Source of the DNA: Phyllosticta citribraziliensis
Taxonomy: Eukaryota
DNA length: 64,000 bases
Direction of reading: 5' to 3'
Assembly: GCF_038025025.1 (NCBI RefSeq)
Contig: NW_027117345.1
Span: 1,922,001-1,986,000 of the forward strand
The notes under the pieces: model-generated
Seen by the model: only the letters and a program-made list of their open reading frames with translations
Database searches by the model: none
Told to the model about the DNA's origin: nothing
Part shown: positions 33,613-63,761 of the stretch, one piece after another
Position numbering within the stretch: position 1 is the stretch's first letter
Layout of the letters: each line of letters begins with the position of its first letter
Program-made: the position numbers and the translations under genes

Positions 33613-35531
33613 CTAGCTACTTGCCTGCCTCGCATCCTCCTTGATCATGTCGGCCGCCTTCTCTGCGACGGCGTACACAGTCGCCTGGATATTCCCAAGC
33701 GTCTCGAGCGGAAAGATGCTCGCGTCGACAACCCTCAAACCCTTGGTGCCGTGAACCCTCAACCGCTCGTCTACAACGCCACCCAGCTTCCTCGGCATCA
33801 TTGCGCACGTTCCAGATGGGTGGAAGCAAGTCCACGCGCGCTGCTTTGCAAGCTCCTTGGCTGCGTCCAGATCATCCAACACGTCCGCCGCATTCGCAGG
33901 CAATGTCCTGCCGCCGTTCTTGATCACCGCGCTGAAAGGACCACTCCGCGCAAGTCTCTCAATGAACTGCGTTTGCCGCCCCAGCAGCTCCAAGTCGACC
34001 GGATGGCTGAGGTAGCGTGGGTCGATGCGTGGAGCCTTGGTCGGGTCTGCTGATGTTATGTGCACGTCTCCGCGCGAGAAGGGGTGGTTGAGAATGGCAA
34101 CAATGGTAACGTAGTTGCCAGGCGTGCTTGGGGCCAGTAGCTGCTGCATCGTCGTCGGTCCAGGGCTTGTGTTGAGCTGAAGCGGGAGAAACATGTATTC
34201 GACCGTGGATTCCTTTGGATTCGCTACGCGCGAACGCAAGAGGGAGTACTGCTCGTCTTTGGCGGGAAAAGACGGGTAAGGAACGCTGTCGAGGTGAGTG
34301 GAGAGCAGCTGGGAGACTTGTGGAGAAGGCACTGCGCCATTTGCGTCGACGGTGGGAAGATACGCAATCGACAACAGAGTTCCGGCCAGAGGACCGCTAT
34401 GAGTCTCCTTGTACTGCTGCAGGACAGCCCCGAGAAGGGCTGGGTCGCGCAGATTGTCTGCAGACAGTTGGTCGTCGGCAATCTCGTAGCTGATGGCCGA
34501 GAGAACATGGTCTTGAAGGTTTTCGCCTACGCCAGGAAGGTCGAGGACGACCGGAATCCCATGTTTTTTCAACACCTCTTCGTTTCCAACACCACTGAGT
34601 TCGAGCAGCTGCGGGGACTGGATCGAACCGGCCGCCAGGATCACTTCTCCGCCCGCTTTGACTCGGAACGTCTTGGGCTGGCCGTCTTTGGTCTTGACTA
34701 CGACCCCTGTGGCCGTCACCGAGCCCTCGGAGTCGGACGCCAGCTCAATCTTTTCAACGAGCGTCTCTGTCAAGAGTTTCAGGTTGGACCTGCTTGAAAC
34801 GTCATCGGTGAAGTATGCCGACGCTGAATACTCCCTGGTCCTGTTGATTGGGTCGATGCAGACGGGGTCGGTGAAGGCACCAAGCTTCTCGCCTGCGATT
34901 GGATCCCCTGGAAGATGGAAACCGAGCTCCTTGAAGCCCTTGACCCACGCTTCGTTGAAAGGCGAGTACCCATCTGGAATGGTCACTTTCAAGGGCCCAC
35001 TCGTGCCCTGCAGCTTCTCGTCCATGTAATCGTCTAGCAACAACTGTTTCTTGGTGGCCTCAGATGCCGGGATAAAGGTATGGAACTTGCGCAGGTACGG
35101 CGCCATGCCCTTGGCGTCCCAGCCATCGTTTCCCAGCGCCGACCAGGACTCAAAGTCGGCCTTGCTGGGGTAGAGAATGGCGGAAAAATTGATTGCAGAG
35201 GACCCTCCCAGCAGTCGGCCACGGGGGCAAGCAATCTGTCGTCCATCTAATCCGGCCTACTGAATCAGTTTCGGACCATCTGACTCGTCTTTGCGGGAAG
35301 CTATACCTGAGGCTCTGTCATAAATGCCCAATCGTAGCTGGGATCCTCGTACAGGGTCGTCATCATTCCCGGCGTGTCGACCCTTTCATCCCCCTTGCGA
35401 TTTGCGCCCGCCTCAATGACCAAGACGGACTTTTGGTTCTCGGCATCTTCAGTGAGGCGAGCAGCTAGGACAAGTCCTGCCGTACCACCGCCAACAATGA
35501 TGTAGTCGAATACGCTTTCTTCAATGGACAT
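33613..35531 (-). CDS. GMC oxidoreductase with no signal peptide (likely intracellular); intron 35257-35306
   Basis: FDYIIVGGGTAGLVLAARL..VIEAG; PRGRLLGGSSAINF; EVILAAGSIQSPQLLELSGVG; GVGENLQDH; FHPSGTCAM; LRVVDAS; GNIQATVYAVAEKAAD (His/Asn pair). Confidence 0.95.
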
Positions 35532-38698: not shown

Positions 38699-41600
38699 CT
38701 AATACGCCACGCGCGTGCGCATATCGCCAATCTTGCGCTCGACCTCTCTGACGCTGCGGTCCAACTCGCCGGCAATGCCCTCCTTCTTGTCGCGCGGCAG
38801 GCGCAGGAAGCGCTCGCAGAGGTCGCCGTCGATGACGCCCTTGACGGGGACGTAGTAGCTGCGGAAGGCGAGGTGGTCGCGGCCGGCGATGGGCGGGTCC
38901 TCGGCGCGCAGCTGCTGCTCGAGGCTCTGGAAGAAGTCGACGTCCTCGCGCGACACAAACGGCACCAGGATGCCGAGCGACCCCTGGAAGCCGCTCCACA
39001 GGAGCAGGTCGCGTCCGCCTGCTACCAGCGACGTCTTTTGGATCGACGTCGGGATGTCTTGGGTGTAAAAGTGCGCGAGCAGCTCGAGACGGTTCGGCGT
39101 GCCTTGCAGGTAGTTGCGCTCGTTGAGGAGATGCGAGCCTGAGCCCTCTTCGTCCGCTTCTTCCGACACCTTTGCTGGACAGCGCACAAGCCATAGGTTG
39201 CCGAAGCGGTCGCCGCCGGCTGTGGTCTCGTAGTCGACCATTGTTGTGCAGGTCGTGTAGCGGTGAATGGTGTCGTCGCAAAAGGGAATCAGCCGGTTGT
39301 CTTGGAATTTGTAAACCACGTATGTAACGGATTGCTGCACGTCGGAGCAGATGATGCGCGAGCCTTGGGTTTGGAGGCCGCAGAGGAGGGTAGGAACCAC
39401 ATTCATGGCTTGAGATTTGCGGAGAAGTTGTTTGAGACCAAGGTCGTAAATGCGCAGGTCGGTGCCAACGCCGGCCAGAAGCCGCCCTTGAAAGGGAAGA
39501 AGCGCTTGTGGAGGGGCTTCAGTCTTGGTCTTGTGGATGAATTCTACGTCGCGACCGTTGTCGTGCAAACGGTAGACATGAATGTAACCGGCTGTAAAAG
39601 TGCGCGGGGCCACAACCAAGTCCTTGGCAGTGCCAATGACGAGGAAAGTTTCGTGATTTTGCGATTCGAATGGTGCCAAACACATGCTGACAATGCCCTC
39701 ATTCTCTTGAAGTTCGAGTGTATGGACGACCCCCTTTTCGTTGACCGGGTCGACAATCTGTACGCAAGAAGCCCAGTGGCTTCTGCCTCGAGGATAACCA
39801 AAATCTTCGGGAGGAAGGACTGGTGCGTCGCCATTCTGAGCTTTGGTGGTTTGATCCTGAATCAGGGCATTACGCGTGGTAGACGACAGAACGTTGTTGT
39901 CAGCCTGGCTGACGAAGAAAAGAGGCTCCGTTGGGTGCCGCACGAGCTGCCGAGGAGTGTACATGAGCGGAATGCTCTCTTTGAGCAAGTTGTTTGAAAG
40001 ATTTTCAATGGTGAAGATGCTGTTGCCATATCAGTCGTTGTTCCAAGTTGTCCTTGAAAACAGAGGGGTTTAATCATCAGATGCGGGACATTGCCTCGTC
40101 GAAGGACTTTGACGAACAGTCTGAAGATGACACCGAAGAAAAGAAACTTACCGAAGATGTGCGCCTTGAATACCCACCATACCCTGAGTGCACTGCTCGC
40201 TGTTGAAGCTCCAACCCCATTCAAGGGGCGGGTAGGCCAATGGGGTGAGCGTAAAAGCCCTAGTCTGTTGGTCGGCATAGCCAAGCCATGAACGAGAGCT
40301 GGTTGCCAACACGGCAGCCTGGTCTTGCACCGTGACGCGGAAGAGCTTAACAGCCTTGGGGCCGAGGAAACGAGTACGAGTGTCGGTCAGCTCGCCTGTT
40401 ATCTCGTCCAGAACGGTGCGGAGGTAGACACCAGAGTAAAGACCAATGTGAAGATATAGAGTGGAGCCGCCTGAAGACGAGTCGGCCATGGCCATGATCC
40501 TGAGCGCCGAGGGAGCCGAGGTAAGAGCCTGGACCGATTTGCTCTCGAGAGTAGAGTCGGGGTCTAAACTCAGGATGCGGACTGTGGAGTCATCACAGCC
40601 AACTGCTAGGAAGGCGCTGCGCATTCTGCCCTCTGGCACCTCTCCAAGACTCAAGCACGTCACAGTGCCGCTCATCTCCTTCTTCTCGTCGTACTCGGCC
40701 AAACTACCATCGCTGTCCATTTCAAAGTAGACAATTTCGCCCGAGCTGAGCGCAACTGCTACTTGGCGTTGGTTGGTACTGGCAGCGACAATGGTCCTGT
40801 GGTTGGGGACTGGCCACTCGTTGATATGGCCTCCGGCTTGGATATGGCGGATACCCCTCTGGTGCACCTGAATTAGGGCGTCTTCTCCCAAAAGCTGCAC
40901 GGCCAGCGTCGACACTTGGGTCAGGAATCCAGTGTCGGTGACTTCCTCCACAGTCTCGCCGATTCCGAGGACCAAGGTACCGTTGGTAAATGACAAGATG
41001 ATGTACGAGTCGTACTCGTCGTCCTTTCGGATCTTTGTGGTCCAAACAGCCTCCGGCATACTGGGCAATTCCGATTCCACCAATTCAGAGACTTCCAACC
41101 CATGCTTAAGTGACTTGAACGAGCTGCGAGCGCCAGTGCCGCAAATTGAGTAGATTTGAGGGGCGTCTTCATCTGTGAGATTAGCTACCTTGCAGTCGAT
41201 AGTCGGGTTCATGCTGTCGACGGCCTGGACAAGCGAGATGTTTTCCGGGCCACGGGGAACAAAGTAGACGGGTTCGTAAGGTTGAGTGTGGTCCGGGTCG
41301 AAATCGTCGCTCATGAATTCAATCTCGTTGTCGTCATCTCCTAGCTTCTCAAACTGGTAAAAGTGATGGTTGCCAGACTCTGTCGCAACAAAGAGGTATC
41401 CAGTCTTCAAGATGCAAAGGCTAGCCGCGGGTGGGACCGTATCAAAGTACTTGATCTTCAAGCGCTTGACGTCGCCCGTTGGCTGGTCTTGCTCATCCTC
41501 GACCATGTCAATAGTGACCTTGAAGAGATCGCCATCCTCGGTTTGCAGGAGGAAGAAAAAGGCACCGCGCATTTTGTGCATGACTCCAGCGGTGATGGAT

Positions 41601-42634
41601 CTCTTTCGTGCTGGGTCCTCTGTTGCTCCCCTGCGCCGAGGGATGGCGACTCTAAACGTATCCTGGTTGCTGTGGCGGTATGTGATCGTCTCCTCGGCGC
41701 ACACCAACACGCCGCTAGGACCGTCCTGTCCACCCGGGACTTGGAAGATCATGTTGGCCGTGAGATCCACAGTGTCAGACCACTTGCGAACCACGTGGTT
41801 GAGACCCAGATCCAGCTCGTAGTACACCAATTCTTTTTGTTTCTCGAGAGCAACCTCTCCCGTCGAATCTTGGTCGACTTCGTCATAGTCCATCTCCAGC
41901 GCGGCGAAAATAGGGTTCTCATATCCCACATCCAACCCTACGAGTGCAAACACCAGAGTCTGAGGTTTGTGGGCCTCGAGCGGGGATGATATGACCAGGT
42001 TGGCCTCGGCGTTCCGGTTGAGCACGTAGACGAATTTGTTCTTTTCGATCGAAGCAATCATACAGGCGCGACCTTTGGGATCCGTGGCAAGGTACTGGCC
42101 GGGGACAACGCGGCGAATGCCCGACTTGCCAAAGGTCTCGAGCTGGGGGCGTGCAAACTCATTTTTGGCGGGGAGGTACTCGAGGATGGAGATTCGTCCA
42201 GAATCCGATCCCACAATTATGTAATCTGCAAGCAAACATGGTCACTATCTCTTCTCCGTCAAGACATGCCTTGGCCGAGCAAGGCGTGCATTCATCCAAG
42301 CCGGGTCCGAGGCGCGATGCGATGGAGCTGGTCGCGTACTTGGAGAATCACTATACAGCCCTGCAAGTGGCGAATACTTTTATGACATACCTTTGTTGGA
42401 TCCAGCGAGTCTGAATGCAGCCAGGCTGCGAATGATGCCAAAGGCATTATGCGAGAGCGTTGTGGTAACCCTCTGGGCTTGCGCGTCGATTCGGTAGAGG
42501 GTGAGGTTGGTCCCGGAGGCCGTAATGATTTGTTGCTCCTTGGTACCGGCAAATTGACCAAGAACAGCCTGCGTAATAGCGCTGGGGGGCTGAATGGTCA
42601 AAGAGTACATGAACAGATTCGATGTGGTCGCCAT
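38699..42634 (-). CDS. RSE1: Pre-mRNA splicing factor Rse1 (SF3B3/SAP130); 3 exons
   Basis: [66 protein letters not shown]-terminal [17 protein letters not shown]. Confidence 0.98.
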
Positions 42635-42993
42635 GGCGAAGGATGCTGTCGGCCTGGCGGCCTCGAGCGGGAGTTTCGGGGGCTTTCACAGGTGACGGCA
42701 GCGTGGGGCCAGGCGGGAGGGCAGCGGTCGTTCGCTGTGGCAAGAGGTGGAGGTGGAGAGGGCGAGGATTGGGTGGACAGTGAAGATGGCGGGCGTGGTG
42801 CTGTATCGCGGCGCGGAGTTTGGGTCGCGCATCGGAGCTCTCACCAGAAATTCTGCCGGGGATGAGGCGGCGTCTTGGAACGGCTCGCGTTGATTGGCCA
42901 GCCACTTCATGAAGTCACTTCGTGCTCCAGCTTAGATTTCCTTCGAGCTGCACCACTCGCCGTCAATCCCAACACCAACCCTCCAGGCCCAGC

Positions 42994-44514
42994 ATGCGCT
43001 CGAGATCGACATGCCAGCGCTGTCTGGCCGCCGTCCAGACGGCTGCCCGCCAGTCTTCGACCCCGCGACTCCAGCAATTGCAAGCCGGCGCTCGCCGCTG
43101 GTCAAGCAATCAGTCCACCATCACCACCAGATCCCCAGAAATCTCAAGGCGTGGCATCTCGTCCATTGGTCGGAAATCTGCTGCCGCCGGACAGGCTCAA
43201 GCCACGGACCGTTCGAGCGCCTCGGGTTCCCACGAATACAACAACACCTTGTTGAAACCAAACAACCTCTTCCACTCCTTTAGCGACTCTCCCTCCCCCG
43301 AGATCCGTCGTCGCGCGGCCTATATAAAACAGCATGCGTACTGTCCGCACCACTCCCACCAGCAAACGCGCATCCCTACCGACCCGGAAGACCCCGAGGC
43401 AGCAAAGTCCGTCAACGCCTCTCTCCCACCCGCACACGTCCGCTACGAGTGCGCCGACTGCGGAATCCCAGTGTCATGCAGCGAGGAACATTTTGCGGAC
43501 GACTACGAGAAGCACTTGGAGATATGCGACATCTTGCGCCAGATCAACGAGGACGACCACGACCTGCGGTCGGGGCGCTTTTTCCCCGAATTCGAGTACC
43601 CGGGCATGCAAATGGACGAGGCTCTAATCAATTTTACGAGCTGGGATACCTACCTCTACTCGAGAGACCACAAGGCCATTGATTCTGAGCGCAGTCTGAG
43701 GCAATCCACGCGCCTTCTGACGTACCCCGCGACGATTGGCAGTTTCCTGCACGAGCTCTCTCCCTACAGCATCAAGAGCGGCGGCCGCCTGACCGTCGAG
43801 GGTCTCAAGTCCCTCTCCGCCCTGCGCTACACACTGCACCCGCCCATGACGGGCGCTGGCGGTGACATCAAGGGCCTGCGACTCAACCCGCCACCCGTCC
43901 GCCTCTTCATCCTGGGCGCGCGCGCCGAGTCCTCGCTGCCGCGCGAAGTATGGCACCAACTCGCCAACATGTTCCCGCGCGCAACCTTCCACCTCATCTT
44001 CATCGGGCCCGAGTCCATGGCCAACCGCGACGACGAGTTTCCCTTGCCGCCGCGCACGCCGGCCAACCCGTTCGGCGCCGTCGTCGAGGACCGCATCAGC
44101 CACAACCTCAAGATCAGCACGTACGTCGAATACTACCACACGCTGCACGAGGCGCACCAGTTCTACCCCTACGACCCCTACTTCGACTGCTTCGTCCTGT
44201 TCCACCCCGGCCTGGGCCACCCGGCCTCGGAGCACGAGTGGGCCGCCACTATCCCGCAGCTCCTCGAGACAAAGGTGCCCGTCCTCGTCACTGGCTACAC
44301 CGACTTCGACATGCAGCGCGACCTCAAGTGGGTCCAGGACAAGGTCGGCGGCGAGGTCGACCTCTTGCTCAAGCCCGGCGAGAACCGCTTCCGCAGCTTG
44401 CGCTGGGACCTCAATGACGTCGATCCGCAGGACATTAGCTGCGGCAACTGGGGCGTGTGGGCGTTTAGAGGAAAGAGGTACGAGGCCACGATGAAGGAGG
44501 AGGCGTCGTCGTGA
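42994..44514 (+). CDS. MSS51: Mitochondrial COX1 translational activator / assembly factor Mss51
   Basis: Arg/Ser-rich presequence; AYCPH..ECADCGIPVSCSEEH..HLEICDILRQINEDDHDLRSGRFFPEF; FILGARAESSLP; FHPGLGHP; ENRFRSLRWD. Confidence 0.93.
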   Translation: MRSRSTCQRCLAAVQTAARQSSTPRLQQLQAGARRWSSNQSTITTRSPEISRRGISSIGRKSAAAGQAQATDRSSASGSHEYNNTLLKPNNLFHSFSDSPSPEIRRRAAYIKQHAYCPHHSHQQTRIPTDPEDPEAAKSVNASLPPAHVRYECADCGIPVSCSEEHFADDYEKHLEICDILRQINEDDHDLRSGRFFPEFEYPGMQMDEALINFTSWDTYLYSRDHKAIDSERSLRQSTRLLTYPATIGSFLHELSPYSIKSGGRLTVEGLKSLSALRYTLHPPMTGAGGDIKGLRLNPPPVRLFILGARAESSLPREVWHQLANMFPRATFHLIFIGPESMANRDDEFPLPPRTPANPFGAVVEDRISHNLKISTYVEYYHTLHEAHQFYPYDPYFDCFVLFHPGLGHPASEHEWAATIPQLLETKVPVLVTGYTDFDMQRDLKWVQDKVGGEVDLLLKPGENRFRSLRWDLNDVDPQDISCGNWGVWAFRGKRYEATMKEEASS

Positions 44515-44903: not shown

Positions 44904-46712
44904 TCACGGACCAGCAGCAAACCGACTCTTCATGCGCAGCTTCTCTCCATACAGCCACAGCAGAATCGGCGCCGGCACACCCAACGCCAAGCCCAAGAAA
45001 GCCAGCAAACTATTGCCCCAGCCCATGCCCAGGCCCTGATACAAAGAGGGGGCAAAGAGGGGGAATCCAAAGCCCGCCAGACTGCGCAGGACGGCGGCGG
45101 CGCTGACGGCGCTGGCGGCGAAACGCGCGTAGCTGTCGACGAGGTACGTCTGGATGCACTGGAAGGCGACGATGGTGCCGGCGGCGAAGATGGCGGCGCC
45201 GACGTTGGGCAGGATCCAGTGGGTGCGGGCCTGCGCGCTCCAGCCGTACCAGAAGAGGCCGACGGGGACGAGCAGGGAGGCGGGGACGATCAGCGGGACG
45301 CGGAATTCGGGGCGCCCGACGCCGTTGTTGCGGGCCTTGAGGCGCGCGTAGATGCGGTCGTTGATGGGCGCCGAGATTTGCGTGCCCAGGAAGAAGCCGA
45401 GCCCGAGTGAGATGTAGTTGAGGCCGCCGATGCCGGTGCGCTCGTTGTAGGTTGTTGTCCAGAGGGTTGGGAAGGTGGAGAGCACGAGGTACATGAGGCC
45501 GTAGAGGAAGGCCATGTAGACGGCGAGGAACTGCACGATGGGCTGCGTGCCGAGCAGGCGGAAGGGTCTGAATAGCGCGGTGCCGAGGACGGCGCTGAGG
45601 CTCTTTTCTGGCGTCTCGTACTCGGTGTGTAGAGCTGGGTTGTTGGTTTCTTTGCGGAGAGCTGCTGCTTTGCGGTTGAGGAGGACCGGCGCATAGGTTT
45701 CTTGCAGGAAGAAGAGGCCGGAGATTTGGATGATCGCGTCGGCGATGCTGGTTGCCCAGAATACCCAGCGCCAGGTGGTGTTTTCGGCAATGAAGCCACC
45801 AGCTGTGACGAGTCAGCAAGGCTATCCAAAGGGCATTGAAGAGATGGACTTACCGATTGGCCCAACTGCCGGGCCGAGCAGTGGTGCCAGACTGTAGATG
45901 GCAATGGCCTTTCCACGCTCTTCAGGTCTGAACATGTCGGAGAGGACGCCGCCTCCTATTCCCAAGGGTGCGGAGCCTCCGAGGCCAGCGAGAAACCGGA
46001 AAGCAATCATCTGTCCTTTCGTCTGCGCGAAACCACAACCCAGATTCCAGGCCAAGTAGAAGGCATTGGCGAGCTGCAGCACAGGAACTCGGCCATAGAT
46101 TTCAGACAGCGGTCCCAGAAACAACGGACCAATTGCGTAGGCGAGGACGAAAATGGACAGGGACAGCTGCTGTTCAAACTCGGACGTGATGTTCAAGTCT
46201 TTTGCGATGGAGCTCAGGGCCGGCGCCACCATGGACGAGGAGACGGGCGAAATGAAGGTAAACGACGACACGATGAGCGTGGCAGCCCACCTCCGCTTCA
46301 TGGACCAGTTCTTGGGGATGGCGGGGTCATCAGGGCCGTTGAACGTCACGAGGTTTGGATCCTTCTGCGAGCGCGAGGTGACTGCCTTTTCGAGCGGCGG
46401 ATCGGGCCCCAACTCGACGTCTCGCTCGTCTGGAATGCCGTCGCGGACTTCAGGCACGGCCGCGTGTTCCTCAGCTGGCTTCTCGGTGTCCGTCCCAGCG
46501 CGATCCTTGCCGGTCGACGAGCTGGATGACGTAGTTTGCCGTGTGACGACCGTGTCGTCTGAATCCTCGACTTCGTCGCCGGCCGCATGGTCGTGGTAGA
46601 CGCCGTGGTCATCGAGGTGATGGGTCGAGTAGACGCGTTGAAGAGAAGGGCTCGACGGTCTGCTCGGACGAGATCTCGTTTGTGATAGTGATAGGTTGGA
46701 TTGTTCGACCAT
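44904..46712 (-). CDS. MFS drug:H+ antiporter (DHA1 family); intron 45803-45853
   Basis: NLVTFNGPDDPAIPKNWS; GPLFLGPLSEIYGRVPV; FRFLAGLGGSAPL; PLLGPAVGPI-AGGFI..WRWVFW; PEFRVP; RSLAGFGFPLFA. Confidence 0.95.
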
Positions 46713-47460
46713 TTTGAGTTTGGGCAGGGGTGCCGGCGGCGGGTCGAAAGCTTAGCAAAGCTTGTCTGGTGGCTGTCCCTGGAATGGAAAGATTGCGTGC
46801 GTGGATGCAAGAATGTGGCCATGACGGGGAGGACGACATTTTTATGTAGCAGTGTCCAGAAAGGTTGACCGGAATTAGTCGATTAAATCCAGGCGGAAGG
46901 TGGTCCTCCCGGTGCCACTGCACAACGAGTGCCTTCAGGTATCTAGATTCACCGATGCGTGGTGGAGACGGCCATTGTTTTTAGCCAATGCCCGATCAGC
47001 CTAATGGTCTTCAGCAGGAGTTAAGAGATGCGATCGAGGTTTGATTGGTCAATTGTTGGCAGCGTACCATACGTGTGCAATTCCTCAGCTGCTGGTAGTC
47101 GGAAACGGCCAGTGAAAAAGCGCCCGTGTCCGACCACACGGGGACGGCGTCGGTTAACTCGGCACACCGAGCCAACGCCACCGTGTTCATGACTCCCTTG
47201 CTAGCGATTCGGGTTGCGGGTGACACAGTCAGATTCGATCAAAGAAGAAAGTGAGATGTGTGACATGGTCAAGGAAGACGGCTGACAAGTCGCTGGTGCT
47301 GTGGTTTGCGGCCGCCTTGCCTCGCTTGGTTAGTGCCAAACTTATTTTGTTTTCAACCACAACCTCATCGCAATTCTTCCCGCATCGCCGCGCAACCTCT
47401 GCAAAGAAGAGTGTTTGATTACTCCACGATTGCAGAGCAGAGTGGTGAGTACCAGAAGGA

Positions 47461-47990
47461 AGTGGATATCTCGAAATCTCAATCAACGCCAGAATTTTCA
47501 ACCATGTCTCTCGTCCCTTAGAGCCATCTCGTCGCCTGAAGGCAGACTTGCCACACCAACCCTTTATCTCTTTTCCAAGCCATCAACCTCTCTGATATCC
47601 GAAATCCTAAGAACCCCAGAATATTCAACCATGTCTCTCATCCGCCAGAGTCTTCCCGTCGCTTGGAGGTTGGCGTACCACGCCACTCCTTCATCTTTCC
47701 TCCAAGCCATCATCGACCTCTTCAAATTCCCAGAATCCCAATAACGCCAGAATCTTCAGCCACGTCTTTCCTTCCGTGCAGCCAACCTGTCGCTTGGAGC
47801 CAGATTGGGTTCCCCGCTCCGTCATCTTCTTTCCAATCAGCCGTCATCTTCAATCATCTTCAGATCCCGATCGAGCCCGGTATCTATTACTGTATCTCTC
47901 CTCCATCGGAGCCACCCACCTCTTTGCTTCGAGGCAGGCCTGCTTCACCTCCTCTTTACCTTCTTTCTCCAAGCCTTCGACCTCTTCAGC
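47461..47990. repeat. About four degenerate tandem units of about 130 bp, derived from the 3' end of the adjacent kinase-like gene
   Basis: Recurring blocks AACGCCAGAAT.TTCA.CCA.GTCT.TC, GTCGC.TG.AG and TCCAAGCC.TC.ACCTC at about 130-bp spacing. The last unit is the coding end (EEVEGLEKE). Confidence 0.7.
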
Positions 47991-49644
47991 ATGCTCTCTC
48001 ATCTCGGCGTCCGTGAAGTGGTAAGGGCACGGGTCTTCTGAATTGACGCCCTGTGTGTCGAAATGACCCCAGGTCCTGTCAAGAGCCATGAGCGATTGCT
48101 GAAAAAAGAAGAAACAGTAGAGAGAACAAACCTTTGAACTTGGATGAGGAACTCCCGGAGAGGCAGAAGGCCGAACTCTTCAATCTTGATGGCGACGTGG
48201 ATCAGCGACGAGATCGGACTGTTCGTCAGTTCCTTGTGCTTGCGGCTACGGGCCAGAAGCTGCTTGGAGAACCGGTCGAATTCCTCCTCGCTGACTGCCG
48301 ACTTGAGCTGCGCAAGGAACTCCTTTGGCTGGTTCAGCATGTCGTGGCCACCAATCTCATACGCCGTAGGAGCATGCCCCGCGAAGGCTGGACCGACCCA
48401 AGAGCCTCGCCAACCAATCACGGTCTTGATCCGGAATTCTTCGTCAACGAATATGTCTTCAGGGCGGAGACAACGGTGAAGGAGGCGGGATGCCGTGGTC
48501 CTCTCTTTCCTCGGCATGATGTGTGGAACAATTGCTGAGGCTTTTTGGAGCAACTCGAAATAGACCTCGGGTGGAGATTGAAGCTTCTTGGTCTCTTGGC
48601 CAGCCTCGCCTTGCTTCTCGCCAGCATTTTTGGCCCAGTCGATCTCACAACCCAAGAGCGCCTTGACGTAGTCAGTCGCGGATGTCCCTTGTACCCGTTA
48701 GCATGATCATTACTTGAAGTGCAATGGAAGACTCACATGGTCCACGATGGTCGACCATGTGTTCCCTTTCCCCCTCCCAGAGCCTGAACTCCTGAGAAGG
48801 TCCAATGTAGAGTTTGCGGGTCCATTCGGAGTAGCGGTCAGTATATTTGAGAGCCTCGTCGTGCGCTTCGCTGGTAGCTTGCATCGGTTGCACCTTTTTG
48901 GCGAGCCGCTTGTCAATCCTGTCATCAAGCCTGTCGTCGAACGACTCCCGGTACAGCGACCCGTGCCTGTTTCTAGATTAGTTGCAATCCTAGACAAGGA
49001 TGATGATGGAAGACTTGCCACTGGAACCACAACGACCCCAGCTTCTTTTCAAAACCCATGATCTCGCTGGCCACTTTTGCTTTGGACTTGAGGTCCAAAG
49101 CATCATGGCATATTTTGCTCAGCTGAGTGCCTTCCGATTCCTTCATGAAGATGCAAGTCCTCAAAGGAACGGGGTTTCCGTCCGAGTCGTTGTCCGAATA
49201 AATGGCGCTGCGTCCATCCGGGGCAAGGAGCTCCTCTTTGTAAGTACCTTCGGTTGCCACTCCACCTTTGGTTCCCCACAGCATCAGTTCAGGAAATGGG
49301 AGCTTCAGACCGTCCAAACCGAACTCCATTGTTGCCGCTTCGGACATGATGCAATCCTCCAGACGATCCGCGTATGCCGACCATTCAAACACTTTGGGAG
49401 CCATCTTCATGATTGCAAGTTCGCCGGTCTCTGACGTCAGCCGAGATATTTCGTTGTATGTCGTGTTCGCAATCTTCTTGACGAAGAAGTCACCACCTGT
49501 CCGGCCGACCTGGAAGCTCGCTCTCTCTCCGAGCCACTGAGTGACTCCGCGTTCGTCAAAAAATGTGCCGTACTCATTGCATGCATCGCACTCGCTGTTG
49601 AAGGCGAACCAGTGCCCCTTCTGGGCCGGGGCCTCGGAAGACAT
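47850..49644 (-). CDS. APH/choline-kinase-like (AIM9-like) phosphotransferase-fold protein, paralog 1; 4 exons; probable pseudokinase
   Basis: SEAATMEF..LKLPFP; W-HGSLYR; HRGP-WTSATDYV; LLHRCLRPEDIFVD..VIGWRGSW; CPYHFTDAE. The first in-frame ATG is MSSEAPAQ. Confidence 0.8.
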
Positions 49645-50262
49645 TGGTCGCTGTGTGAGGGTGTTGACAGTGGGAAAGGTCGAGTGCAAGAGCAGAGGCT
49701 TGGTCGTGTGTAGAGCTGGACTGGACAAGACCCACACAGGAGGTCAGATCACGGAAGGAGTTGGAAAGCTGGCCAAGAGGAAAATTTTGAGGTGAATTGA
49801 GAAGAGAAGGGAAGAGGTTGTCGGGGTTTGGTTTGTTGGCGGGCAGCAGGCGGTATTTATGACCTTTGCTTTGGCGCTAGCCCGATGTGAACACCGACGC
49901 GTGTGACTCTGCGTCGCTGCGCCGCAGAGCTGTGATCTGGGGTGCATTTCCGCGGCGGCTCTGTTTGTGAAGGCTGCCAGAATTGGAGAGTTTGGCAGGC
50001 TTTGGCAATGCGCGAGTCTTAGTCGACAGTAAGCTTCCGCCTATCTCGTTGCTGCATTCATCCAGGCTTTCTCAAAGTCTTGTATACTGCTAATTGGACC
50101 ATGGCTTTACAGGAACAATCACCATGGCCGCATTTCCAGAACCAGTTTGCAGATAAGAGTGTCAAATTGCTACAAGCTCAAAGTAGAGTGGAGTGGGTAT
50201 CTCAAAATCTCAAACAACGCCTCAACCCCCATCGAGCGCTTTTATTCCGCCTTTTGGTCCCC

Positions 50263-52075
50263 TCAGATCCATTCCGCAACCATCATGCACTGCTCCTTCA
50301 TTGTACCATCCTCAGCTTCTTCGAAATGCTCTTTGATTTCCTCCTCTGTGAAGCTGTACGGGCACGGATCCTTCGTGCTGAACCGATTCCAGCTTCTGTG
50401 GTGGAAGATTAGCCTCTTGCTGTCCAGTCTGGTGATTCACAATGACAACAAACCTCTGAACGGCAACAAGGAAATGCCTCAATGGCAAAGTGTAGCCAGA
50501 TGCCAGCTGCTCGACAGCTGCCATGAGCGAGGTGACTGGGTTCTTTCTCACCTTATCCTCCTCTTGATCGCGAGCTTCCTTCGCCCGCAAGAATTGTTCA
50601 ATCTCCTTCCCATATCCTTGAAATTTGAGCTGGTTGATGAATTGCTCCGGTGAATAAGTGTCGCCAGAACTGCAGCGCTCGATTCGGTACCAAGGGGGCT
50701 TCGTAGGAGGATGGGTCGCAAACAATGGGCCCACCCATGCACCTCGCCAGCCAATCACGCTTTTAATATGTCCTTTCTCATCCACGAAGATGTTGCCAAA
50801 GTTCAAATCCGGGTGACACAGCCTTGCGGCAGTCGATTCGCCGTCTTTTGGCATCACATGCTCGACAATTGACAAGGCCTTTCGGAGCAACTCGACTTTG
50901 ACATCAGTTGACGGTTGTAGTTCTTCTTTCTGGGCTTGATCTTCGACTGATTTAGAGGCATGTTCAGACATACGGTCAATATCGTGCTGCAGCTGCGTCT
51001 GGACGTAGTCAACAGCAGATTTCCCTGGAAATCACAGTCAGCAACATCAATACTCAAGGGCTTATCGAAGACGTACAGGGGCCGTACTGAAGTTCAGTGG
51101 CATGTCCCCCTGCATTTACGGTCAGCAAAATCAATGTTTAAGGGTTCCCCGTCAGACATACAGGGACGGCGGTCACGGTTTACTCCCTCTCGTCTGATCC
51201 TCGTGTTACTGACAGAGGGACCGGTCCAAGCTCTGCCTAATTTCGTGGACGTGGTTTCCAATGGGTTGAATTGGTACGTGTGCTGACTATAGATCTGATT
51301 AAAGTAGAGAGATCCATACCTACCCTTGAGCGTCAGTGTGGGTTGAAAGCTCGTGGAACTCAACGACGACCAACCATTTGAACTGATACGAGGCGAGCTT
51401 TCTCTCAAAGTCGAAAACTTCAGTGACTGCCGTCACTTGAGCTTTCCACTCCAGTTCTGCCCATGCCTGTCTCAATGGAGTGCCCTCCGCAGCGTTCATT
51501 ATGATGAATTGCATTTCTGGAAGTGCTTTGTTGTCTGAACCAACCGAAGTTGTTTCCCAGTAGTCTGTAGAGCTGTACAACCTCGTCATGGGTACTGGAA
51601 GGTTCAAAATTCCACGGACAAATTCCATGGTGGCCACCTCGGAGTTTACGGTTTGATCGACGAATACAGAATGTTCGGAAGATGGATTTGTGAGCTTCAT
51701 GATAGCTGTTGTGCCGGACGGAGACGATGGCAGCTTAGCGTTCAGGCGAAGCAGTTGGTAAAAACTTCCTCGTGCAATCCTCTCCACGCCACCTTCTTCG
51801 ACAGGCAGGCATACGAAATATGCGTCATGCTCAGCAATACTCTGAATCGCAGCGAAGTCGTACAACGTCTTCACTTCTTCGCCTTGATTGCAGAGTTTAC
51901 AGTGGCTGTCGTACGCAAAGAAATGTTTTTCCTGCGCTGGAGCTTCGGAAGACATTGGTCGCCGGGAATGGAGCGCGTTTGCGAGCGCAAAGGTGGGGCG
52001 CAAGAACGGAGGTTTGATTGCGCGCATTGTGCGCAGGGCCACGCTGGACTGAGCCCAGGTAGCGAGTCGAATCAT
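50263..52075 (-). CDS. APH/AIM9-like phosphotransferase-fold protein, paralog 2; 5 exons including a 33-nt microexon; probable pseudokinase
   Basis: Presequence-like MIRLATWAQSSVALRTMRAIKPPFLRP; SEVATMEFVRGILNLPVP; W-YGSLYF; GP-WKSAVDYV; LCHPDLNFGNIFVD..VIGWRGAW; CPYSFTEEE. Confidence 0.82.
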
Positions 52076-52414
52076 GTTGTAGCTGATCCGGTCATTGGAG
52101 TGGAAAGGCTTGAGTTGAGAAGGGAGAGTGGAGGTTGGCGGTCGTTGATGCGTTGACACAGCAGGCGGGCGGTATTTGTGACACTACAGGGGAAGCTAAC
52201 CCGATGTGGTCATCGTCACCTTCAACGAGGGAATGCCTGATCATCGAGCAAAGGAAGAGCCTCCCCAATTTTGAGGCGGATCAATATCATTGCGGAGAGG
52301 GTTGATCGATTTCTACAAGAGCAGAGCGGAGTTCGAGTCTCAAAGCCTTCGACAGCGCCTCAAATCCCACCAGGCGCTTTCCATAGCGCTTGTCCGTTTC
52401 TGGGTCTCATGCCA

Positions 52415-54010
52415 CTACACGACGGTCCAGAGTCCTACACCCATGCAGGCTTTGGCCACACGCTTATCACCCGCCTCTGCAAATTTGTCCATCTTCTGAT
52501 TGGCCATCTTGATCTCTTCATCCGTAATACGGTACGGACATGGCACTGGTGCGCCAAAGCGTTTCCAATGACTGCGAAAAGGGCATTAGTTATTTATCAT
52601 TCAGCCACATGCGGATCAGGGAAACATACGCCTTGACATGCATCAAGAGCACCTCGAGCGGCAAGGTCCCAAATCGTTGTGTCCTCAGGCCGATGTGGAG
52701 CAGCGGTAGAATTGGCTCCTTCAGCGCTTTTCTCAGCATCGCACTTTGTTCCCATAGCGTTTGTGAAAGCTCGCCGAGCTCTTCTCCGCTGACCTTCGAC
52801 TTGAGTTGCTTGATAACTTTTTCTGGATTCAGGTCTTCATCGCCCGGAGTCAATTTCAAGGCCCAGTTAAGGCTTGCGAACGCTGGTCCAATCCATGAGG
52901 ATCGCCAGCCGATGACAGTCTTGACACGAAACTTTTCATCGACGTAGAGATCGTCTATGCTGAGAACCGGGTGATGTAGCTTGGGTGACGTGAGATCGTT
53001 GTCTTTTGGCATGATGAACGGGACAATCGACAACGCTCTCTGCAGAAGCTCGATGTGATACTCGTACGGGGTGCCGGACTTGTCAACGTTGTCGGGAGTG
53101 TTCATCTTTTTGGAAAGACACTCAATCTGACAACGCAGACGCGATTCGACGTAGTCGTACGCACACGTCCCTTTCAAATCAAGTTAGCAAAACCTTTGCT
53201 TAGGGATAGAGTTGTAGACGCACAAGGGCCATGATATTCCTCCATGAGATGTTTGTCGTCCCCTTTGAAAAGCATACTTTCACACGAACGACCAATGTAG
53301 AACTCGGATTCGGTGAGCTGCTTCTCTTCTGGAGAGGCGCCATGCAAGACTTTGGCCTTCTGGCCTTCTGGAACCTCGTACATGAAGTCAGATGAGGGAC
53401 GATAGATTGAACCGTAACTGTGAAGTATATTAGTGCAAAGCAGCTGGACAGAGCAAGATACGAACCGATCAAAGGTGAACGAGGACACCCTTTTCTCAAT
53501 CTGCCAGCCAGAGTGTGTCAATCTCGTTCTGGTCACCACGTCCTTCTGCAATATCTCTTTGGCCGAGCTGGCAGGAATGCCCTCTGCAAAGTCCATGAGA
53601 ACCGCCCTGTGGCAAAACGCTGCTCCAAGGTCTTGGTTGATCCAGATCTTGGCTTCAGGAACGGGCAACTTCAACACTGTCCGAAGAAAGTGCAAGGTAG
53701 CGACCTCGGAAAATTGTTGATAGCGCATGTATTTCAAGTCCCCGTCGGCGGAGTGCAGAATCTTCAAAAATTGCCCCGCTGATTCTTCGCCTTCGGACAG
53801 CTTCATCGTGAAGCTTTTGAAAGCTCCTTTTTCGTTTGTTTGCTTTTCATTTTCGTCAAAGAATTGCAGATCTTTCTTGGGGAGGCGACTGCTTGAATGC
53901 TTCGTGGAGAGGGCGAAAGTGTTGGCGAGCGCATAAGACGGGCGCAAGAGTGGAGGCTTGATCTTAGGCAAAGCCACGCAGGGTCGGGCCCTCGCGACAA
54001 ACCGGAACAT
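52415..54010 (-). CDS. APH/AIM9-like phosphotransferase-fold protein, paralog 3; 4 exons; probable pseudokinase
   Basis: Presequence-like MFRFVARARPCVALPKIKPPLLRP; SEVATLHFLRTVLKLPVP; R-YGSIYR; HGP-WTCAYDYV; LHHPVLSIDDLYVD..VIGWRSSW; CPYRITDEE. Confidence 0.8.
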
Positions 54011-59780: not shown

Positions 59781-61070
59781 TTAGGGAGGAGGTGCGAGAT
59801 CCAATCCCTCGACCGTAAGCTTGAAGGCGTCGTGGCGAGCATACGAACCAGCGACGTCCAGGTCCAGTCGTCCTCTCTCGCAATCCTCAAAGTCGACATC
59901 AACGACCAAAAGGCCGTCGGAATCGTCCTCCCACAGCGGACCGCCCAGGACGTCGCCCAGCGGGGAGATAATGCAAGATCCGCCTCTGCAGACAAACTCT
60001 TCGTCTTCATCAGAGGAAACCGGATGGTCCTGTCCGGCCTTCGGCTCTGGCCAGCAAATCTCGTGATGCTCTGGCGTCTCGGTGATTTTGGACTTGCGGC
60101 GGCCGCGAGGAGAAATGCTGTTCGGTCTCGATTCGTCTCCGTCTTCAATAGCCGAAGACGATGTTCCGTTGGGGACAGCAGGCAAACAAATTTCATGACC
60201 TTCTCTGGTCGTGACAGTAGACCTTCTGCGTCCGCCTAGCTTGTGCTCAACGGCGTGGTCCTTCTTTTCGACCTCCTTTTTCGCCGCCACGGCCGGGTTT
60301 CTCACCCACTCTGGCAAATGCTTTCTCCTGACACATTGATTCGAGCTCAAGACAAATGCGCGGCTCTCGCACGCCACGGTCCTCATTAGCGGCAGCCAGG
60401 TATCGCGGGCATCGGCCGTTGGCGCCAGATACAAGTTGACGTTCTGGGAGTAAATGGCGAACCGCGTCAACGGCATCAGATTCTCCCAACAGATGGCGGC
60501 CGCGAGCGTGACCCGGACGCCCTTGATATCGGTGACGACGGCCTTGAGCGTGCTCGCTGCACCCTGAGCCCACACGAGGCGCTCTGTCCCTGTCGGCATG
60601 ACCTTGCGACGCTTGCCCAGCATCCCCAGCCGCGGACACACGTACACAACGGCGCAGTATAGACTGCCTCCGGCGCGCTCGACGAGTCCCGTCACCAAAA
60701 AGACGCCCGTCTCGCGCGCGATGCGCTCCAGCTCTTCTCGCGTCCCGTCGCCCCGCACCGAGGACCCTTTGGCCAGTGGTAATTTGCGGTCTACCCATGC
60801 ATCGCCGGCGCCCACGGGCGTGTCGCCAAGATCAACCGCGTCGTGGAAATAATGCAGGAATTGGTCGCGACCATTAGGATCACGTGCTCCGACCGCGGCG
60901 CCAAATGTACATGTGCGAGGATATCCCCCTAGATAGGCCTCGGGGAAGAGGACCAGGTCGACGCCGTTGGCAGCGGCGCGCTTGGTGGTTGCTTCGAGGG
61001 CCTTGAGGGTGTCTTGAGTGGTGTCCAAGGTGCGAGACTGGGCCACAGCCAGCTTGAGTCTTTGTGGCAT
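59781..61070 (-). CDS. Carbon-nitrogen hydrolase / nitrilase family protein
   Basis: Catalytic triad motifs LFPEAYLGGYP (Glu), KRRKVMPTGTERLVW (Lys) and AICWEN (Cys); GGSCIISPLG; DLDVAGSYAR. Confidence 0.95.
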   Translation of the reverse strand: MPQRLKLAVAQSRTLDTTQDTLKALEATTKRAAANGVDLVLFPEAYLGGYPRTCTFGAAVGARDPNGRDQFLHYFHDAVDLGDTPVGAGDAWVDRKLPLAKGSSVRGDGTREELERIARETGVFLVTGLVERAGGSLYCAVVYVCPRLGMLGKRRKVMPTGTERLVWAQGAASTLKAVVTDIKGVRVTLAAAICWENLMPLTRFAIYSQNVNLYLAPTADARDTWLPLMRTVACESRAFVLSSNQCVRRKHLPEWVRNPAVAAKKEVEKKDHAVEHKLGGRRRSTVTTREGHEICLPAVPNGTSSSAIEDGDESRPNSISPRGRRKSKITETPEHHEICWPEPKAGQDHPVSSDEDEEFVCRGGSCIISPLGDVLGGPLWEDDSDGLLVVDVDFEDCERGRLDLDVAGSYARHDAFKLTVEGLDLAPPP

Positions 61071-61603
61071 TTTGTGGCAGTTAAGACAACGGGCCAGACA
61101 GAGGCTTTAAGATTGGGATTCCACAGGGGTTGGTTGTGTTGTGGTGCGAAGAGGGAGGGTTGCGAAAGAAGTCGAGTTATGGCGTGAGGGGTAGTCTTAG
61201 CTGCTCAAGTGGGGCCATGCTTTTTTGAGACCCCGCATCGACAAGGCTACATCGGCCTATCATGGTCGCATCGAGAGTGGATATTGTGTATGAGAACAAT
61301 GAATTGGACGTGGTCGTGGACAAGTTGCCGAACTTGCCGCTGGATGGTTGGGGCCGATATCCTCCAAGCATTGCGTTACCGAAGCTAAACCGTGTTCGTC
61401 GTCAGTATGCATTCCGGCCGCGCCTTGAACTTGATCAAGTTGTTGTATTCGTGACTGTCTACCAACCAACATCTGATTTACATAGAAACCAAGCAGCCAT
61501 TATTGTCGTTTCCATGTCTCCTGGCCGATGCCGCATCCCAAACGTGAAGCGCGACTGCTTACTTGGGCTCGGCCAATACGACGACACTTTGTCTCATGTT
61601 GTC

Positions 61604-63761
61604 TCATCTCCTCTTGGGCTTTATCAGCTCGTTAAAAGCCTGCTCGATGCCCCTCTTCACCTCTCTATAGCTCACCACCAATACGCTCTGCTCATCTCTG
61701 CTGACCAAGGAAATTTTCTCGTCACTGGCTACGTCTAGCTTGTTGAGGCAGCTGATGACGTGCCCTAGGTCCACTACGGCATGGCCATTTGCATCGACTT
61801 GATGGAATACATAATCCCGGAATAGTTTGATGTAGTAGCGCTCGCCAGTCTCGGACCACTGAGGGTTGTTTTCGAATTCTGGGCGCTCATTGATGAAATT
61901 CAGCTTGGCCATTAGCCTTACAAGGCGGCCGTTCTCCAGCTCGCGTGCGAGGTTGGACGTCAGCGTGTCTTCGGCGCGAAAGGTATTGTCCAAGACCGCA
62001 GTCATCTTATCCGCAATTGACCCCAGGAAAAAGTTGATGTCTTTCGGCGTGGCCGTGGGGTTCTGAGGATTTGCTGGAGGGCTGAGAAGCCAAGAAACGC
62101 AGTCGACAAGATCCTTGCTATAACCTCGAGCCAAAAGGTCTAAAGCTTTGGGAGCGTTGACTGGACTGACTGTGTTGTTACCCGCTATCGTGACTACGAG
62201 ACGTCCGAGTTGGCTCAAGTCTTCTTGCTGAAGCTCAGGCAGCGGACGAATCGTGTCAAAATGAACCAGATCGAGAATGGCACAGCTGTTGAGTCGTATC
62301 CGATTCTTGGATGTGAGCAGGATTTTGGAAGGGTGTATCAGTCTCGCCGCCAAGTTGTGGCTGTGAATCGCTTTCAGCGCAGAGGCAATCTGAACAATGT
62401 AGCTCCAGAGCACGGATTCAGAAACCGTTTGCGGGTTGGCTCTGCCATGAAAGCCCCTAGCAGTCTGCAAATGCTGTTCTGAAAGAGTCTTTGAAAGTGG
62501 GTGATAGTCGGTCACGAAAATCAGCGAACTATCTCCAAAAGCCCGGGTGGTAAAGGCATCGTGAATGGCGACAATGCTTCCACTATCGACACGCTTCCAG
62601 GGCCGAACGGAGAAGATGGCTTGTTCGCTGGTCAAACGGTATCCCTCCAGTCTACGAAGGGTATAGGTAAGACCATCTTTGCCCGAGACTGCCTTGTAGA
62701 CCCAAGTGTGGTATCCAAAAAGGGTTGAATTCTTTTGATTGTTGGTGTCCAATGGTACCAGAGAATGAAAGTGATCGACGGCACTCGGGAGTGTCGAGTT
62801 GGGGAGGATTTGGCGAGTGGCTTCTGACTTGCGCTGCAAGTCTTCGCGCAAATGATCAGGGATAAAAAAATCATGCGACGTTTTCTGATAACCCAGGAGG
62901 TTCTCTGGATGGGGACCCATTGGCGCATATAGATGATATTGGATTGGCTGCGGGAAGCCGCCCACGGCGTTTTGGAAAAAGGCGGCGCCGCCCATTGTCG
63001 CCGCATCTTGGGTGTATGGATTCAACTGAGCCGCATGGTTTGCGGGACTCATGCCGCTCATGGCGGCAGGAGTGAAGTTGTCATATGGGTTGAGGGCCGC
63101 CGAAACGGCGCTTTCCCCCTAGAAGATGTTAGATCAGACCAGAGGTACATCGAGTCGAGCAGAAGGGAGAAACAAGTAGGCCATGATGGTGACCACGTCA
63201 AACAATTACGAGGCAGCAAACTGCCGTCTTTCCAAACGCGACCTGAAACCAAACGTACCTGAACGTCGAATCCCTGTGGCACAAACTCCTGAAACTCGTG
63301 CCCATGCCATTCGGGCGCGGGTTCTTTGGTATGGACAGGCGTGATTACGGTAGACTTGACATTGGATTTGGGAGTGAAGACGGCTGCATTGGCGGCCTTT
63401 GGAGATATGGTTGTAGCTCTCGGCGAGGATGCGGCGCCATTCGGGGCGGGTTGGAGGGGGGTGAAGGAGGGCGAGTCGACGTTGAAGCGCTTTTTGACGT
63501 TTTCGGATTGGGCAGACGCGATCTTGGACGGGTCGTGCTGGAAGACGCAGCCGTTGTGTTCGTGACGGCAGTGGCCATATATGGTGACGTTCCGACACAG
63601 TATGTTGCTTTTGGGGTTGTAGTCTGCGGGGCGACAGAGGTTAGCATGGGGTGGCAGCGATGGCGGACGTCGAGGCCATGATACCCACCGCGTCCCTTGT
63701 TTGGCCTGGGAGAAGCGACAGCCCGGCGGCTTTCACCCGGGCTTCCTCCAATTGCTGCCAT
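61604..63761 (-). CDS. PAN3: PAN2-PAN3 deadenylase subunit Pan3; 3 exons
   Basis: CCCH finger LCRNVTIYGHCRHEHNGCVFQH; KKRFNVDSPSFTP; YHLYAPMGPH; pseudokinase domain; RELENGRLVRL..WSETGERY..LFRDYVFHQVD. Confidence 0.96.

Follow-up and report, generated by a model that had tools for sequence, protein, structure and literature searches.

The window analysed here is a 64-kb stretch (64,000 nucleotides) of Phyllosticta citribraziliensis DNA (contig NW_027117345.1, positions 1,922,001 to 1,986,000), and all coordinates below count from its first letter. Between 47850 and 54010 it carries, on the minus strand, three head-to-tail paralogues of the APH kinase-like family that have lost residues of the catalytic centre. 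We refer to them as copies 1, 2 and 3, with the stop codon of copy 1 at 47850 and the ATG of copy 3 at 54010. Exon models were assembled from the coordinates, and all three frames were open, giving 545, 531 and 478 amino acids (aa) for copies 1, 2 and 3, respectively. The models were letter-identical to the database proteins P0092 (copy 1), P0091 (copy 2) and P0007 (copy 3), which are consecutive P. citribraziliensis accessions annotated as uncharacterized; the UniRef label for copy 2 is 'Altered inheritance of mitochondria protein 9'.

47850..49644, minus strand: copy 1 gene, 545 aa; exons 49644-49019, 48966-48737, 48687-48132 and 48075-47850; introns of 52 nt (GC-AG), 49 nt and 56 nt
50263..52075, minus strand: copy 2 gene, 531 aa; exons 52075-51375, 51319-51162, 51109-51077, 51024-50454 and 50395-50263
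52415..54010, minus strand: copy 3 gene, 478 aa; exons 54010-53466, 53417-53224, 53170-52630 and 52571-52415

Three introns are common to the three copies in position and phase, one before GS[LI]Y (phase 2), one inside GPW, between GP and W (phase 1), and one before the W...CPY segment (phase 2). A first-pass annotation, made from the letters alone, had described three head-to-tail minus-strand genes with shared intron positions and with frames that stay open despite their divergence, and the stop-free models identical to database proteins bear out both statements. The motifs by which it had characterised the trio (SE.AT..F, GSLY and CPY) are indeed present, but they are family-wide, as is GP-W, and therefore not special to these genes. 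No fourth locus was detected in the 64-kb window by tblastn with the relative P0001, the remaining matches having E >= 1.3. The surrounding DNA is fungal nuclear, with a GC content of 50-61% and short introns.

A search with full-length copy 2 returned 34 matches, and those from outside Phyllosticta were fungal 'phosphotransferase enzyme family' or AIM9/FMP29-like proteins. The best of these was P0113 of Xylona heveae (E 3.4e-52, 30-31% identity over ~90% of the length), and the final one was P0144, the Ashbya AIM9 orthologue (E 1.7e-4, 22% identity), through which the trio is a distant match, in the same Pfam family, of S. cerevisiae Aim9/Fmp29 (YER080W). The Xylona protein itself matched 808 clusters at E <= 1e-30, showing that the canonical family is very large in Pezizomycotina. 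The catalytic exon of copy 2 alone scored 25.8 bits to the Pfam family APH (PF01636), matching profile positions 110-202 of 239. Copies 1 and 3 gave no match to Pfam APH at E <= 0.1 (P0092 and P0007) or E <= 1 (exon translations), and their homology to the family was established via copy 2, the alignments and the tree described below.

Structures of copies 2 and 3 were predicted with AlphaFold2 using family alignments. Both models showed a bilobal APH/FN3K fold, in line with the kinase-like fold first proposed. For copy 2, the predicted local distance difference test score (pLDDT) was 74.9 and the predicted template-modelling score (pTM) 0.77, with the first 64 residues disordered; for copy 3 the values were 79.9 and 0.80, with the first 56 residues disordered. 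In a Foldseek search of the PDB, the top matches were all APH-type small-molecule kinases (E about 1e-6, probability 1.00), the best being APH(2'')-IVa, APH(4)-Ia, APH(3')-IIIa and fructosamine-3-kinase (FN3K), whose chains were covered nearly whole. VIA-align superposed the copy 2 model on APH(2'')-IVa with Z 15.7 and a root-mean-square deviation (rmsd) of 4.5 over 271 of 298 residues, and the copy 3 model on human FN3K with Z 14.1 and rmsd 3.6 over 262 of 291 residues. Identity between the bacterial APHs or FN3K and the fungal proteins is 10-16%; the latter have insertions and extend further at the N-terminus, and exceed the former in length by ~200 residues.

We then located the catalytic positions by aligning the family profile with APH(3')-IIIa, which it matches at the N-lobe and the catalytic loop: the profile string LWHPDxHxGNIFV...IID aligned with FSHGDLGDSNIFV...GFID, whose last residue is 208. 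In APH(3')-IIIa, D190 serves as the catalytic base and N195 and D208 as metal ligands, and bacterial APHs and fructosamine-3-kinase carry the full catalytic set. Because the profile alignment places it at D208, the Gly of the VIGW motif in copies 1-3 stands at the DFG-equivalent position.

48410..48478, minus strand: copy 1 catalytic region, HRCLRPED at 48478-48455 and VIGW at 48421-48410; without the catalytic Asp, Asn changed to Asp
50747..50815, minus strand: copy 2 catalytic region, HPDLNFGN at 50815-50792 and VIGW at 50758-50747; HxDxxxxN intact
52905..52973, minus strand: copy 3 catalytic region, HPVLSIDD at 52973-52950 and VIGW at 52916-52905; without the catalytic Asp

The VIGW motif and the three loops are exactly the strings that the first-pass annotation had given, and the catalytic Asp is lost in copies 1 and 3 as it had stated; the HxDxxxxN loop is present in copy 2 only. 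Copy 2 is therefore missing one canonical catalytic residue (the metal-binding Asp), and copies 1 and 3 are missing two, plus the Asn. The Gly codon at the metal-binding position is GGT in copy 1 and GGC in copies 2 and 3. Canonical relatives have Asp at this position in 47/49 sequences, and in a 20-sequence alignment Asp was found in 15/15 non-Phyllosticta rows and Gly in 5/5 Phyllosticta rows. Gly is present at all nine Phyllosticta loci that cover the site, from four species (three loci in the window and two each in P. capitalensis, P. citrichinensis and P. citriasiana), and at two of the nine the following Trp is also changed (IGC and IGR). The catalytic Asp is retained at only one of these loci, copy 2 of the window; the other eight carry C, C, G, H, V, A, T and T.

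The remaining conserved positions were also compared. A set of 49 canonical sequences has 55 near-invariant columns, and 29-37 of these are retained by the five full-length proteins of the Phyllosticta clade. The three catalytic positions are among the lost columns, which also concentrate in the glycine-rich loop, at the hinge Glu residues and in the N-terminal YTSGRW module. The retained ones comprise SEVATM with the alphaC Glu, GSLY and GPW, the His of the loop and the Trp, together with several Pro and Gly residues. The G-loop Gly, invariant in canonical proteins (47/47), is gone in copies 1 and 3, and all five full-length clade proteins have lost the two hinge Glu residues. The beta3 Lys is still present in copies 1-3 (as IMK, IMK and FLK), as is the alphaC Glu in SE(A/V)AT, and these two residues align with LYLKM and with the Glu of REKDMM in APH(3')-IIIa. 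Judged by the residues themselves, this pattern appears to be the usual signature of a pseudoenzyme, with the scaffold retained and the chemistry lost.

The canonical AIM9/FMP29-like proteins of Xylona, Tothia, Byssothecium and Alternaria are in the same length class as the trio and, as shown below, form its sister group. Both share SEVATMEF, GSLY, IGP, GPW, the catalytic-loop His, the Trp after the Asp position and PCPY. The canonical proteins read WHPDxHxGN...IIDWQ, whereas in the trio Gly replaces the Asp and Arg replaces the Gln; the canonical G-loop GEGNYNK and the YTSGRWLWNE module are degenerate in the trio, which also lacks a 13-residue segment and the canonical C-terminal tail, such that the alignment runs ~60 columns past its ends. 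Even the distant Ashbya protein P0144 keeps HPD...N and the metal-binding Asp (LLDF) that the trio lacks. As regards the yeast namesake, Aim9 is listed in the available part of a 2026 source as mitochondrial and of unknown function (PMC13459536), an interaction between Aim9 and Mdv1 is suggested in the accessible text of PMC13350749, and the literature on AIM9, mitochondria and kinase, as far as its text was accessible, describes no activity.

To place the trio within the family, an exhaustive HMMER search with the catalytic exon of copy 2 against 1.84 billion representatives was performed, and 89 matches were obtained at E <= 1e-3. Those that belong to the clade of the trio, eight in number, all came from Phyllosticta. 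A maximum-likelihood tree was built from 29 rows with one sequence per locus, excluding same-locus duplicates such as P0003, P0005 and P0016 and splitting the fused model P0096 into two parts. The ten Phyllosticta rows grouped together with 100/100 support, and the stem of their clade measured 1.01 substitutions per site. The sister of this clade (97/97) was the canonical group of Tothia, Xylona, Byssothecium and Alternaria. Ashbya P0144 stood as the outgroup on a long branch of 2.5, and Pezizomycotina have hundreds of paralogous clusters; the trio is at most a candidate orthologue of S. cerevisiae AIM9. Within the clade there were three sub-clades, one with copy 1 (96/94), one with copy 2 and a 507-aa protein of P. 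capitalensis (80/81, weak) and one with copy 3 (100/99), indicating that the duplications predate the citrus Phyllosticta species. The paths to P. capitalensis were 0.84 for copy 3 and 1.34 for copy 2, both exceeding the Xylona-Tothia path of 0.62 in the sister clade, and the Phyllosticta clade evolves several-fold faster than its canonical sister proteins. A lineage-specific, fast-evolving family, as first suggested, is thus supported by the restriction to Phyllosticta, the long stem and the long paths within the genus.

P. citrichinensis is given as the closest relative of P. citribraziliensis in the available portion of a Phyllosticta comparative-genomics paper (PMC9073689), in which the words 'kinase' and 'phosphotransferase' occur 0 times. 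Identity to P. citrichinensis is 82% for copy 1, 55% for copy 2 (partial N-terminal part only) and 84% for copy 3, and copy 3 is 54% identical to its P. capitalensis orthologue. P. capitalensis carries adjacent full-length orthologues of 507 and 484 aa with consecutive accessions; the 507-aa protein recurs in three or more annotations with different tags, and in a fourth the gene is divided into 208 + 298 aa. In the P. citrichinensis model P0096/P0016, a part resembling copy 3 runs straight into a presequence and N-half resembling those of copy 2, which indicates the same gene order in that species; this fusion and the missing halves could be annotation artefacts or real deletions. No description of this Phyllosticta clade, and no related work on fungal APH pseudokinases, was found in the literature searched.

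We also asked how the metal-binding position behaves in the rest of the family. All eight Phyllosticta matches have Gly, one of them read by pattern only. The 81 matches from elsewhere comprise 70 with Asp, 4 with Gly, 4 with Asn, 1 with Glu and 2 that are not alignable, so that 9 of the 79 scorable ones lack the Asp; those with Gly are a tandem protein of Phylliscum, an Emmonsia protein and two metagenome proteins. The metal-binding Asp has been replaced independently in other fungal members of the family, and its loss is not unique to the trio. Family proteins flagged with regard to this site are P0029, P0140, P0050, P0074, P0076, P0031, P0037, P0057, P0089 and P0018, and the first of these, from Phylliscum, is a tandem fusion of two such degenerate domains.

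Next, transcription of the locus was studied in two public runs from two studies (X1 and X2), which are recorded as 'RNA?' and whose contigs match the window without differences. We treated them as transcript assemblies because of seven exact intron skips, stretches without contig cover (49910-50351 and 53225-54108) and adapter sequence at a contig end. In copy 1, all three introns including the GC-AG one were skipped by an X1 contig, and introns 2 and 3 also in X2; this X1 contig reaches 49809, and the leader contains no ATG before 49644. In copy 2, all four introns were spliced in an X1 contig with the micro-exon included. This contig runs upstream beyond the first ATG (52075) as far as 52128, where it ends in adapter sequence, indicating that the presequence codons are part of the mRNA. 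Usable splice signals are present at all ten introns of the trio, and splicing was seen for seven.

The paralogues were then compared for constraint. Amino-acid identity between them is 31-37%, and the proportion of nonsynonymous differences (pN) is 0.42-0.49 as against 0.74-0.78 (saturated) for synonymous ones (pS) in all three pairs. Synonymous divergence (dS) is undefined for two pairs and 3.5 for the third, and since it is saturated, constraint is stated as pN < pS only. The copies are old paralogues, saturated at synonymous sites. In a substitution-only simulation with 10% neutral change, 0.1-0.2% of frames stayed open and 6-7 stops were introduced. The first-pass annotation had named missing spliced transcripts together with dN/dS near 1 as the marks of decaying pseudogenes, and the opposite was found: copies 1 and 2 are spliced, and pN lies well below pS in all pairs. 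The trio is not decaying, and its frames are kept open by selection.

The splicing of copies 1 and 2 shows two further features.

51025..51194, minus strand: two tandem 85-nt units in copy 2, each made of 33 nt of exon end and a 52-nt intron
48967-49018, minus strand: copy 1 intron 1, GC-AG (GCAAGT...CAG), absent from the spliced X1 contig

As a correction to the first reading, an additional, fourth intron of 52 nt was identified in copy 2, together with a 33-nt micro-exon at 51109-51077. Introns 2 and 3 of copy 2 are both 52 nt long and in phase 1, and the exon end CCCT is followed by GTA in both units. The two introns are 71% identical, the top value of 45 intron pairs, with a score reached by 0/5000 shuffles. 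The additional intron and the micro-exon likely arose by tandem duplication of the 85-nt unit. A copy 2 model without the micro-exon (520 aa) was not seen in the contigs. At the position of the GC-AG intron of copy 1, copies 2 and 3 carry GT-AG introns.

The N-termini differ among the three copies.

51956..52075, minus strand: copy 2 N-terminal extension, 40 aa, presequence-like by composition, model disorder and homology with copy 3
53870..54010, minus strand: copy 3 presequence-like segment, with the first acidic residue at position 47
49645..49752, minus strand: disabled copy 1 presequence, aligning with the presequence codons of copies 2 and 3

As the first-pass annotation had noted, copies 2 and 3 begin with basic, acid-free, presequence-like segments, having 7 R+K and 0 D+E in their first 40 residues. 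These segments are homologous to each other, and several canonical relatives and the Ashbya AIM9 orthologue have a similar composition. Upstream of copy 1, the aligned segment has GTG for ATG (49752-49750) and TGA for the third codon CGA (49746-44), indicating that copy 1 lost the extension secondarily; the remnant is now part of the transcript 5′ leader. Mitochondrial import of copies 2 and 3 is suggested only by this composition and by the yeast namesake. The proposed array of mitochondrial pseudokinases would thus comprise at most copies 2 and 3, whereas for copy 1, with its presequence lost, the description does not hold. In copy 2, an upstream open reading frame (uORF) of seven codons starts with an ATG at 52095 (52072-52095, minus strand), and its TGA overlaps the main ATG as ATGA. 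A second in-frame Met follows directly after the presequence (51953-51955, minus strand, MSSEAPAQ); the proteins of Xylona, Tothia, Alternaria and Nemania and P0099 share a Met at the aligned position, and copy 1 and P0001 begin there. The uORF and the second Met of copy 2 may provide two start sites and hence two locations.

The neighbourhood of the trio was scanned as well. Of 12 flanking open reading frames (ORFs), eight have a Pfam family, all ordinary and mutually unrelated, and four have none; among these 12 there was no sign of a metabolite cluster or a mobile element, and a gene-cluster explanation was ruled out by ordinary neighbours of unrelated kinds. The identified neighbours, assigned by Pfam, include the following.

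33616-35256, minus strand: GMC oxidoreductase
38702-42241, minus strand: RSE1/CPSF-A-type gene (two ORFs)
42913-44511, plus strand: MSS51
45825-46751, minus strand: MFS transporter fragment
59784-61106, minus strand: CN-hydrolase
61607-63118, minus strand: Pan3 homologue (Pan3_PK, E 1.5e-62)

The Pan3 homologue is a well-known pseudokinase unrelated to the trio; it lies 8 kb away, and the proximity is apparently a coincidence.

Based on the above results, we consider it reasonably probable that the trio is a Phyllosticta-restricted, fast-evolving, non-catalytic pseudoenzyme offshoot of the AIM9/FMP29-like APH branch, which would bind a ligand or partner, with copies 2 and 3 acting in mitochondria. 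We propose that in the ancestor of the clade the metal-binding Asp (IDW) became Gly (IGW) via a single A-to-G change, and that duplication of the gene would then have given rise to three lineages, ahead of the divergence of the citrus Phyllosticta species. Afterwards, the catalytic Asp position would have drifted freely, and the glycine-rich loop and the hinge acidic residues would have degenerated, with the structural core and the C-lobe motifs retained. The ancestral enzyme's ligand or partner would still be bound by these proteins, which would sequester or present it rather than phosphorylate it. The presequences of copies 2 and 3 would direct these two into mitochondria, and copy 1, having lost its own, would act in the cytosol.

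Several observations pull away from this explanation. The structural models are compatible with the fold and give no independent proof of it, as recovery of the family fold is expected when the model alignments are dominated by canonical relatives. Copy 3 is represented by two short, low-depth contig pieces (52369-52553 and 52843-53031) that span no junction and are neutral on its splicing. Copy 2 retains the beta3 Lys, the alphaC Glu and the HxDxxxxN loop (HPDLNFGN) and may still turn over ATP, and at full length it scores 24.5 bits (E 2.6e-5) to Pfam APH, above the gathering threshold of 23.2 bits. In the available text of PMC9403797, plant ILK1, which has GFG for DFG, is reported as active and CASK is described as needing no cofactor; ILK1-3 show the same change at the metal-binding Asp, kept within a clade, but ILK1-3 and CASK are eukaryotic protein kinases, some with atypical activity, whereas the trio has an APH-type small-molecule kinase fold. 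If the proteins, at least copy 2, were still active by an atypical mechanism, either metal-independent or using another metal ligand, 'pseudokinase' would be a misnomer, and strong purifying selection is compatible with an active enzyme too. We regard this as unlikely, given that the catalytic Asp survives at a single one of the nine loci with its position varying freely (C, G, H, V, A, T), that the G-loop Gly (in copies 1 and 3) and the hinge Glu pair (in five clade proteins) are lost, and that no compensating acidic residue is evident in the 20-sequence alignment. Finally, the gene models seen in P. citrichinensis and P. citriasiana were all partial or fused and include IGC and IGR variants, which could mean decay there.

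That the genes are transcribed but functionless, decaying remnants of a duplicated AIM9-like gene would agree with those models (which also include a CLY variant), with the very long branches, with the absence of a Pfam match for copies 1 and 3 and with the lost presequence of copy 1. A second annotation of P. citribraziliensis itself, however, holds truncated models (216 and 309 aa), so gene-model length is unreliable, and the interpretation of the truncated and fused models as decay was withdrawn. Decay is further opposed by frames of 478-545 codons that remain open despite saturated synonymous sites, where 10% neutral change closes ~99.8% of them in simulation, by the complete set of usable splice signals, most seen spliced, and by the adjacent full-length orthologues in P. 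capitalensis and the retained core residues; it is very improbable. Pairing of an active with a degenerate paralogue is a common theme in kinase-like families, and the canonical family with its 808 clusters in Pezizomycotina could supply the active member, in which case the trio would serve an active canonical AIM9-like kinase, with its gene outside this locus, as allosteric activators or scaffolds without catalysis of their own. We find this quite unlikely: there is no canonical copy within the 64-kb window, and no Phyllosticta or Botryosphaeriales protein was among the best 120 of the 808 relatives of the Xylona protein. We also view as doubtful, and offer only as speculation, an extension of the pseudoenzyme explanation in which the canonical AIM9-like member was replaced in Phyllosticta by its disabled descendants, which diversified under recurrent adaptive pressure into binding modules split between mitochondria and cytosol. 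Copies 2 and 3 would then perhaps be dual-targeted via the second Met and the start-overlapping uORF, with copy 1 cytosolic, and an example of their role would be sequestering a plant- or competitor-derived compound once modified by the ancestral kinase.

The wider impact is limited, as the clade is restricted to a single genus and degenerate proteins occur commonly among kinase-like families. Nevertheless, the AIM9/FMP29-like APH family is a large fungal kinase-like family that is still uncharacterised, and the trio provides a natural contrast for the ligand of the family, between canonical sisters and three degenerate paralogues and between putative mitochondrial and cytosolic forms. The formation of pseudoenzymes looks recurrent in this family, since the same Asp has been lost several times elsewhere. 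Altogether, an expressed and constrained clade without its catalytic residues suggests that the scaffold is useful beyond phosphotransfer.

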